From a virus (taxonomy: Duplodnaviria > Heunggongvirae > Uroviricota > Caudoviricetes): a stretch of 11,884 nt of DNA. A model generated the notes under the pieces. That model was not told where the DNA came from, searched no databases, and saw only the letters and a list, made by a program, of their open reading frames with translations. The stretch is from IMG/VR virus record IMGVR_UViG_2541047849_000001; one strand, given 5' to 3'. Shown here one piece after another: positions 4,314 to 4,693 of the stretch. The number at the start of each line of letters is the position of its first letter. Position 1 is the stretch's first letter. The translations under genes were made by a program, and so were the position numbers.

Positions 4314-4420
4314 ACAGCCCCCGTTTATTATTTATCGCCTCAGCCAGCCGCTGTGCTTTCAGTGGATTTCTGATAACAGAAAGGCCGGGAAATACCCAGC
4401 CTCGCTTTGTAACGGAGTAG

Positions 4421-4693
4421 ATGAAAGTGATCGCGCCTACCCGCTTTGGTCCCGGTCAGGCGATTGTCACCCCGGCGGTGATCAAAGGGGAACTGCTGGC
4501 AACCTACCGTCAGCTTGAGCGTGCGGGGATCGTGGAAAACTACGAACTGTTTAAGCAGTACCTGGTTGTGGAGCGTGATGCCAGCGATCCGAACCGCCTG
4601 AACACGCTGTTCCCGCCTGACTATGTTAACCAGTTGCGTGTCTTTGCCGTGGTTAACCAGTTCCGTCTTCAGTATTCAGAGGAGTCTGCATAA
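4421..4693 (+). CDS. Phage tail protein, 90 aa; possibly the C-terminal remnant of a Mu-like tail sheath
   Basis: ORF directly upstream of and overlapping (ATAATGG) the tail tube gene, where a Mu-like module would carry the roughly 400-500 aa sheath gene; in-frame stop immediately upstream at 4418; GGAG RBS 4 nt before ATG. Fragment versus complete small gene cannot be decided from sequence alone. Confidence 0.5.
   Translation: MKVIAPTRFGPGQAIVTPAVIKGELLATYRQLERAGIVENYELFKQYLVVERDASDPNRLNTLFPPDYVNQLRVFAVVNQFRLQYSEESA

Follow-up and report, generated by a model that had tools for sequence, protein, structure and literature searches.

A tail-sheath stump at a deletion junction in a decayed SfIV/SfV-type prophage of Escherichia coli

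In an 11,884-nt stretch of phage DNA (hereafter the window, to which all coordinates refer unless stated otherwise), an early-region DNA methyltransferase gene on the minus strand and a Mu-like tail module on the plus strand meet abruptly. The open reading frame (ORF) that opens the tail module has only 90 codons, and it occupies the place directly 5' of the tail tube gene where a sheath gene of roughly 400–500 codons would be expected. What is this ORF, and how did it come to stand there? The initial annotation allowed two answers, namely the C-terminus of a sheath cut short by an internal deletion or a complete small gene in a module from which the sheath is absent, and it held that no contractile tail could be built in either case. 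Here, the locus is compared with intact relatives, with solved sheath structure, and with other decayed prophages of the same kind.

Setting of the junction at thrW

The window sequence is fully contained, as an exact match, in scaffold KE701198.1 of E. coli (GCA_000459575.1; locus L005). It carries a decayed prophage of the SfIV/SfV type, at thrW beside proA, of which the left two-thirds are included. The reference loci, which carry their own numbering when intact, are an argU prophage (L001), the prophage of E. coli 2012C-4221 (L003), the prophage of E. coli QEC11-421 (L004), and e14 of K-12 (L008). The features from the host flank to the junction are listed below.

1–1254, plus strand: proA, the host gene flanking the integration site (417-aa ORF; annotated as proA in the 142 E. 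coli genomes with the same arm)
1369–1444, plus strand: thrW, tRNA-Thr(CGT) (ARAGORN)
about 1399–1462: attL core, repeated at attR of L004 (40663–40726) and of L005 (17592–17655)
1459–2622, minus strand: prophage integrase (387-aa ORF; PF00589 in the scaffold gene calls; annotated as a tyrosine recombinase in L004)
2499–2849, minus strand: HTH/excisionase-like gene (Pfam labels; same gene at the same coordinates in L004)
2821–3099, minus strand: DUF4222 gene (Pfam labels; same gene at the same coordinates in L004)
3147–3365, minus strand: TraR/DksA-like gene (Pfam labels; same gene at the same coordinates in L004)
3464–3679, minus strand: hypothetical gene (same gene at the same coordinates in L004)
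3756–4313, minus strand: phage N6-adenine DNA methyltransferase (Dam family), intact, 185 aa (full PF05869 profile, E = 2.3e-56; phrog_111)
4306–4443, minus strand: remnant of a DUF1317 gene, 45 codons and stop (its reading frame tracks the intact genes up to the junction)
4421–4693, plus strand: chimeric 90-aa ORF (profile searches; comparison with the L003 sheath)
4438–4443: junction 1, a 6-bp microhomology (TACCCG) present in both parents (three-way alignment)

Phages of the SfI/SfV type integrate at thrW beside proA, have contractile tails, are lambdoid mosaics, and are related to e14 (PMC3636060). The SfIV/SfV phage type combines lambdoid early genes with an HK97-like head and a Mu-like contractile tail. 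The window element shares the thrW/proA integration site of SfV/SfI/SfIV-type phages, and an integrase gene and att repeats accompany it there. The right end of the remnant, as read in the source scaffold, bears the cognate attR and the right-hand host flank of L004 (the paoD side); both ends therefore belong to one prophage. The serotype-converting subgroup carries gtrA, gtrB, and a gtr-type gene beside att; no gtr O-antigen glucosyltransferase gene has been called in the source scaffold from attL to attR, an interval that contains an unread gap of 2 kb. The element is a defective member of the SfI/SfV/SfIV group without gtr genes, a fresh instance of a well-known object. As an att-bounded phage segment that carries pseudogenes and lacks essential lytic genes, it is also a cryptic prophage in the usual sense.

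The gap comprises 2,015 Ns (L005 12049–14063) and follows directly on the window end at 11884, within the tail-fibre region. Its counterpart in L004 holds fibre and fibre-assembly genes beside a pin invertase, a repeated and invertible segment that assemblers consequently cannot resolve.

The starts assigned earlier to the methyltransferase (4313, minus) and to the first tail ORF (4421, plus) agree with the ORF list (3756–4313 and 4421–4693). The abrupt join that had been noticed between early region and tail module is equally borne out, since the left arm is lambdoid and the right arm SfIV-like, with the split at 4438–4443. Positions 3700–4443 are 99.9% identical to the lambdoid early-left operon (int...Dam, DUF1317, exo, bet, gam) of the argU prophage (BLAST). 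Positions 4438–5400 are 100% identical to the sheath 3' end, tube, and chaperone genes of L003 and of phage vB_EcoM-720R4 (BLAST) and 99.2% identical to SfIV, so that the two phages span 99.2–100% identity here. SfIV is 98.7% identical to the window over 4438–8400, where the compared SfIV locus ends, and has no match to 4300–4437, the stretch holding the DUF1317 remnant and the 5' end of Dam. In the three-way alignment, the left parent (...GCGCCTACCCG/GATATT) matches the window through 4443 and the right parent (...GACGGTACCCG/CTTTGG) matches it from 4438, placing the join 17–22 nt inside the ORF. An end point in or just before 4421 had been proposed. The internal deletion stands, and its position shifts: alignment with intact relatives puts the breakpoint about 20 nt further downstream, within the ORF.

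The two genes had also been described as diverging from a 107-bp spacer. The distance is correct, but the segment (4314–4420) is not a shared intergenic spacer; it belongs to the leftward early operon, as the 3' portion of a DUF1317 gene that has been cut short. Intact DUF1317 genes in L001 and L004 encode 52–53 aa on the minus strand, overlap the start of Dam, and reach the equivalent of window position 4467. The remnant lacks the start codon and the first 8 codons and has no alternative start available. A promoter scan of 3600–5000 returned two sites against 1.3 expected from shuffles; both fall within the Dam gene on the opposite strand, and none lies beside junction 1 or the ORF. The idea of a spacer with divergent promoters was dropped, as promoter-like sites occur at the shuffle level and none is near the ORF.

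Public gene calls contain a 41-aa "DUF1317" protein here (4306–4431, minus strand), whose start would be a non-canonical ATC. On the opposite strand of the source scaffold, they contain an 88-aa "Phage_sheath_1C" protein that begins at GTG 4427 (4427–4693, plus strand). The two called fragments are deletion products, and their 5' ends overlap each other.

The 90-codon ORF and the sheath gene

Residues 7–90 of the ORF are identical to residues 415–498 of the 498-aa sheath of L003, and its first six codons (MKVIAP) are left-parent sequence, antisense to the DUF1317 remnant. The profile comparison that the initial annotation had recommended gives a concordant result. Matches of the ORF to sheath profiles are confined to their ends, covering positions 39–104 of 104 in PF17482 (Phage_sheath_1C; E = 2.4e-14) and positions 417–493 of 493 in phrog_165 (E = 1.3e-35). 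In SfIV, L003, and L004, a sheath gene of 498 codons lies directly 5' of the tube gene, in keeping with the size and place expected beforehand; in the window, the stop codon of the ORF overlaps the start of the tube gene (TAATG, tube from 4693). Taken together, these comparisons indicate that the 90-aa ORF is the last 84 codons of a 498-codon tail-sheath gene left behind by a deletion, the first of the two answers offered earlier.

The second answer, that the ORF is a complete small tail gene and that the sheath is missing or encoded elsewhere, could draw on a match to phrog_9609, a 53-aa family of unknown function that is covered end to end on the profile side. However, homology to the C-terminus of the 498-aa sheath, which is exact over residues 7–90, begins precisely at the DNA breakpoint, and the C-terminal domain PF17482 is covered at positions 39–104 of 104 only. 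Moreover, the element has no other sheath gene: the gene calls for the attL–attR interval of the source scaffold include none, and the unread 2-kb gap there matches tail-fibre genes in L004. The ORF is accordingly no complete small tail protein, and this alternative retains next to no probability. An exact-product look-up of the 90-aa ORF gave no match, because gene callers begin the ORF at GTG 4427 (88 aa).

The structural content of the stump can be read from the sheath of phage Mu. Residues 3–490 of the L003 sheath align to the solved 495-aa sheath chain 9khy (E = 5.9e-80), and the PDB code 9KHY is cited in the cryo-EM study of phage Mu (PMC11915804). According to that study, the Mu sheath polymerises through a four-stranded "handshake" formed by the N-arm, the C-arm of a neighbour, and a hairpin of domain I, and a domain I helix (residues 72–86) touches the tube (PMC11915804). 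On this chain, Mu gp39 (gpL), the stump matches about residues 419–494, the C-arm included, whereas the N-arm, the tube-contacting helix of domain I, and domains II and III are all absent. A full-length subunit (about 400–500 aa, with N-arm, domains I–III, and C-arm) is therefore not what the ORF encodes, only 84 of the 498 residues being left. The stump is the C-arm with the adjoining end of the sheath fold, and without the missing parts it cannot polymerise.

An in-frame TAG (4418–4420) stands directly 5' of the ATG of the ORF (4421), and GGAG, a chance occurrence in left-parent sequence, stands at 4414–4417. With GGAG 5' of the ATG and GTG codons, the stump may be translated from read-through RNA. 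For annotation purposes, the ORF at 4421–4693 (the 88-aa "Phage_sheath_1C" protein) and the 41-aa "DUF1317" call should be recorded as pseudogene remnants.

A deletion of about 23 kb and the decay of the tail module

The same proA-thrW-int...Dam arm is carried by 142 complete E. coli genomes. Its best match is L004, with 99.3% identity over window positions 1–4443, where the arm forms the left end of an intact 39.3-kb prophage at proA-thrW (attL 1399–1462, attR 40663–40726). After DUF1317, L004 continues with exo, bet, gam, kil, cIII, N, the repressor, cro, cII, O, P, the nin region, and Q, and then with lysis, HNH, terminase, portal, protease, capsid, connector, and tail terminator genes up to a 498-aa sheath at 26289–27785. 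The window matches L004 1–4444 and then again from 27530, so that 23,091 bp (L004 4445–27535) are missing. This interval holds exo/bet/gam, the immunity, replication, lysis, terminase, and head genes, and 83% of the sheath gene; consequently, none of the immunity, replication, lysis, packaging, and head modules is complete in the window element. In contrast, SfIV, SfI, SfII, SfV, and vB_EcoM-720R4, which have the same tail gene order as the window, possess the complete 498-aa sheath along with head, packaging, lysis, and regulatory genes.

The best matches of the right arm, L003 and vB_EcoM-720R4 (98.9–100%), lie at another locus or lack the DUF1317 region, and no genome among those sequenced is near-identical to both arms. 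The immediate ancestor is for this reason a reconstruction, and the figure of 23.1 kb an estimate. L003, the best right-arm relative, sits in the DLP12/ompT region of another strain and not at thrW. Within the tail module, L004 has no megablast-level match over window 5084–7445 (the 3' end of the chaperone gene and the tape measure), where it carries a different allele. The module is mosaic, its chaperone 3' end and tape measure being of the SfIV/L003 type.

This division of best matches between genomes raises the possibility that two separate prophages were involved, and that illegitimate recombination fused a lambdoid element at thrW to an SfIV-like element located elsewhere. The closest matches of the two arms do come from different genomes and loci: positions 3700–4443 of the left arm are 99.9% identical to the argU prophage, and the right arm is 98.9% identical to the prophage of the DLP12 region (L003). 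Yet L004 unites the left arm and a Mu-like tail module in one prophage at the same site, and the remnant ends with the cognate attR (the copy of the thrW 3' end) and the host flank of L004. Recombination between prophages would also be expected to rearrange or delete chromosomal sequence, of which local synteny gives no sign. The split matches are best explained by mosaicism among SfI/SfV/SfIV-type phages (PMC3636060), and an origin from two prophages is very unlikely. Given the cognate attR and the L004 host flank in the source scaffold, an intra-prophage deletion is the simplest reading. Very probably, one deletion of about 23 kb in a single SfIV/SfV-type thrW prophage made the stump, as a case of ordinary prophage decay.

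The scar at junction 1 consists of a short microhomology, with no insertion sequence and no repeat. Such a scar fits a single illegitimate recombination event in which TACCCG in the DUF1317 gene was joined to TACCCG at sheath codons 414–416. Judged by the scar alone, the join would be RecA-independent in type, produced by replication slippage or microhomology-mediated end joining. The event removed about 23.1 kb, comprising exo, bet, gam, kil, cIII, N, the repressor, cro, replication genes, nin, Q, and lysis genes, as well as the terminase, portal, protease, capsid, head-tail connector, and tail terminator genes and sheath codons 1–414. The 90-aa ORF is a by-product, in which a chance ATG antisense to the DUF1317 remnant falls in frame with the last 84 sheath codons. 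Native promoters have been lost on both sides, pL for Dam, and Q and pR' for the tail genes; with these gone, any expression would be read-through or accidental.

Beyond the stump, the tail module proceeds as listed below.

4693–5049, plus strand: tail tube gene, intact, 118 aa (PF10618, E = 2e-33; 0 aa differences from L003)
5046–5369, plus strand: tail assembly chaperone gene, intact (PF10109; 0 aa differences from L003)
5454–7361, plus strand: tape-measure pseudogene (PF10145; ungapped alignment to the 635-codon gene of L003 and SfIV)
7386–8762, plus strand: DNA-circularisation/Mu gp43-like gene, intact (PF07157; 9 aa differences from L003, no stops)
8759–9838, plus strand: Mu gp44/GpP-like baseplate hub gene, intact (PF21683, PF22255, PF21929; comparison with L003)
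9838–10219, plus strand: gp45 (spike/V), codons 1–127 of 182 (PF06890; out of frame thereafter, with the ORF running to 10251)
10218–10219: junction 2, TA microhomology at an 851-bp deletion
10220–11003, plus strand: gp47 (baseplate J), residues 93–352 of 352 (PF04865 positions 34–255; starts at the natural Met93 codon, 10221)
10994–11578, plus strand: gp48/YmfQ baseplate gene, intact (PF10076; 1 aa difference from L003)
11582–11884, plus strand: 5' part of a tail-fibre gene (translation; the window ends at the scaffold gap)

The Mu-like order of sheath, tube, chaperone, tape measure, gp43–gp48, and fibre is kept, at 97–100% nucleotide identity to intact relatives, and the tube, chaperone, gp43-like, gp44-like, and gp48 products differ from those of L003 at 0–9 residues. 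This order persists despite three lesions. The first is the sheath stump. The second is a single CAG-to-TAG change at 6828–6830, codon 459 of 635 in the tape measure, where L003 and SfIV both have CAG; it yields ORFs of 458 and 175 aa that look like two genes. The third is the 851-bp deletion, which joins gp45 codon 127 to gp47 codon 92/93 and takes with it the C-terminus of gp45, the whole of gp46, and gp47 codons 1–92. In Mu, gp46 initiates sheath assembly by nucleating the first sheath ring (PMC11915804). From the nonsense codon and the 851-bp deletion it is evident that selection does not maintain the tail module as a machine. The earlier verdict that no contractile tail can be made is sustained on more grounds than the sheath alone: the tape-measure TAG, the loss of gp46, the truncation of the spike (gp45) and the wedge (gp47), and the loss of the tail terminator gene add to the stump. 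In annotation, the element is best labelled a defective prophage, unable to make tails or particles. What the deletion has left is int, the Dam methylase, and inert tail genes, and the locus offers a clean, base-resolved case in which one microhomology-mediated deletion disarms a temperate phage by removing every module dangerous to the host.

Because the window comes from a contig of a draft scaffold that ends at a gap, an assembly chimera might be suspected at the junction. An independent assembly speaks to this point. Logan contigs of ERR4578576, a separate sequencing run listed for six samples, are 100% identical to the window over 3087–7505 and 8548–10247; junction 1 and the tape-measure TAG recur in contig ERR4578576_219 and junction 2 in ERR4578576_397, each with 0 mismatches. 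Furthermore, the 6-bp overlap at junction 1 is well under assembler k-mer sizes. With these separately assembled contigs in agreement, a chimera is extremely unlikely. Both junctions are absent from 5,426 complete E. coli genomes, and a 41-mer for junction 1 has 0 exact matches when each species is represented by a single genome. Both scars are real and limited to a narrow lineage.

Could the stump nevertheless be expressed and have acquired a function, for example as a C-arm fragment that poisons the sheath assembly of superinfecting SfV/Mu-type phages? Several features would suit such a role: an ATG or GTG with GGAG 5' of it, retention of the C-arm that takes part in the handshake between subunits, the existence of PHROG families made up of sheath C-terminal fragments alone (phrog_9609, phrog_11048), and the retention of junction 1 in at least one clonal group. 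Nevertheless, the start codon arose incidentally from the join, no promoter-like site is nearby, and the adjoining tail genes are decaying. The absence of junction 1 from all of the complete E. coli genomes searched gives no sign of spread or conservation, and the junction-carrying copies, being all identical, provide no measure of selection. A functional stump is extremely unlikely, and the ORF is better regarded as a relic of the deletion.

A deletion endpoint shared with e14

The closest analogue of the window element is e14 of K-12 (beeE, jayE, ymfQ, stfP, pinE), likewise a decayed prophage of the SfV/SfI type. In e14, internal illegitimate deletions have fused unrelated fragments, including a fragment of the portal gene (beeE) with one of the baseplate-J gene (jayE), and gp48/ymfQ, the tail-fibre genes, and the pin invertase are kept. 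It aligns to window 10218–11884 at 96.3%. The two elements differ in their sites, e14 lying at icd with a different integrase and the window element at thrW, and in what they have lost. e14 retains the immunity region and part of the terminase gene but has lost the entire region from sheath to gp46, whereas the window element keeps tube to gp45 and has lost its immunity, replication, lysis, and head genes.

The right endpoint of junction 2 (10218–10220; L008 10636–10640; L003 26632–26636) falls on the same base as the beeE/jayE junction of e14. The intact gp47 site reads ...CCAGCGGGTA/TATGCGCTGG, window junction 2 reads ...AATGCGCCTA/TATGCGCTGG, and the e14 junction reads ...CTGTGTGGTA/TATGCGCTGG; the left partners differ, being gp45 in the window and the portal gene in e14. 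Two grounds speak against junction 2 being derived from the e14 junction, and this reading was rejected. First, the right flank of the window diverges by 2.35% from intact-type copies versus 3.7% from e14-type copies, which rank 73 or lower of 120. Second, an identical 260-aa J product is encoded in a contig of L139 (GCA_030936295.1) that has the intact gp47 context, with 20 nucleotide mismatches in 1,664. The gp47 deletions of the window element and of e14 thus look independent when their flanks are compared.

The intact gp47 site (...GGGTA/TATGCGC...) is an imperfect 20-bp palindrome centred on the break, and as single-stranded DNA it is predicted to form a hairpin of -7.4 kcal/mol (z = -3.4). 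On the left side, the heptamer GCGCCTA lies directly left of both window junctions (4433–4439 and 10213–10219), and both right-hand parents read GGTA ahead of the break. On the plus strand of the 39-kb L004, GCGCCTA occurs once, at junction 1; in L003, it occurs at the left endpoint of junction 2 and in one other place. Two random TA sites share five or more upstream bases with a simulated probability of 0.0013, a value to be read in light of the similarity having been noticed post hoc. The other internal junction of e14 (oweE/aaaE) has neither TA nor GCGCCTA, and the motif is therefore not general.

These features could be taken to mean that deletion endpoints in SfV/e14-type prophages are non-random and reflect a sequence- or structure-directed process of cleavage and rejoining, such as hairpin processing or the action of a site-preferring nuclease or topoisomerase. 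If true, such a process would shape prophage decay. It is, however, an unlikely explanation. No third independent gp47 junction is found in IMG/VR and the species representatives, which contain intact and e14-type contexts only; of the 127 loci that carry the gp47 right flank, the context is intact in 122 and of the e14 type in 5. Five degenerate scans of IMG/VR for other left contexts yielded nothing but two SNP variants of the intact site. Recombination by the Pin invertase at a pseudo-site was set aside as a source of the TA crossover, the gp47 site probably being unlike the hix/gix/pix consensus. The shared gp47 endpoint is treated here as a coincidence that merits a systematic survey, not as a finding. 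The significance of the locus lies mostly in annotation, and the coincidence with the jayE endpoint of e14 is the sole element that could generalise.

Contigs from L139 (GCA_030936295.1), L140 (an ENA metagenome), and L142 (Logan) end within 2–28 nt of the gp47 break. These contig ends fit a right flank that behaves as a repeat with several left contexts, for example where e14 and an SfV-like prophage occur together, and that breaks assembly graphs.
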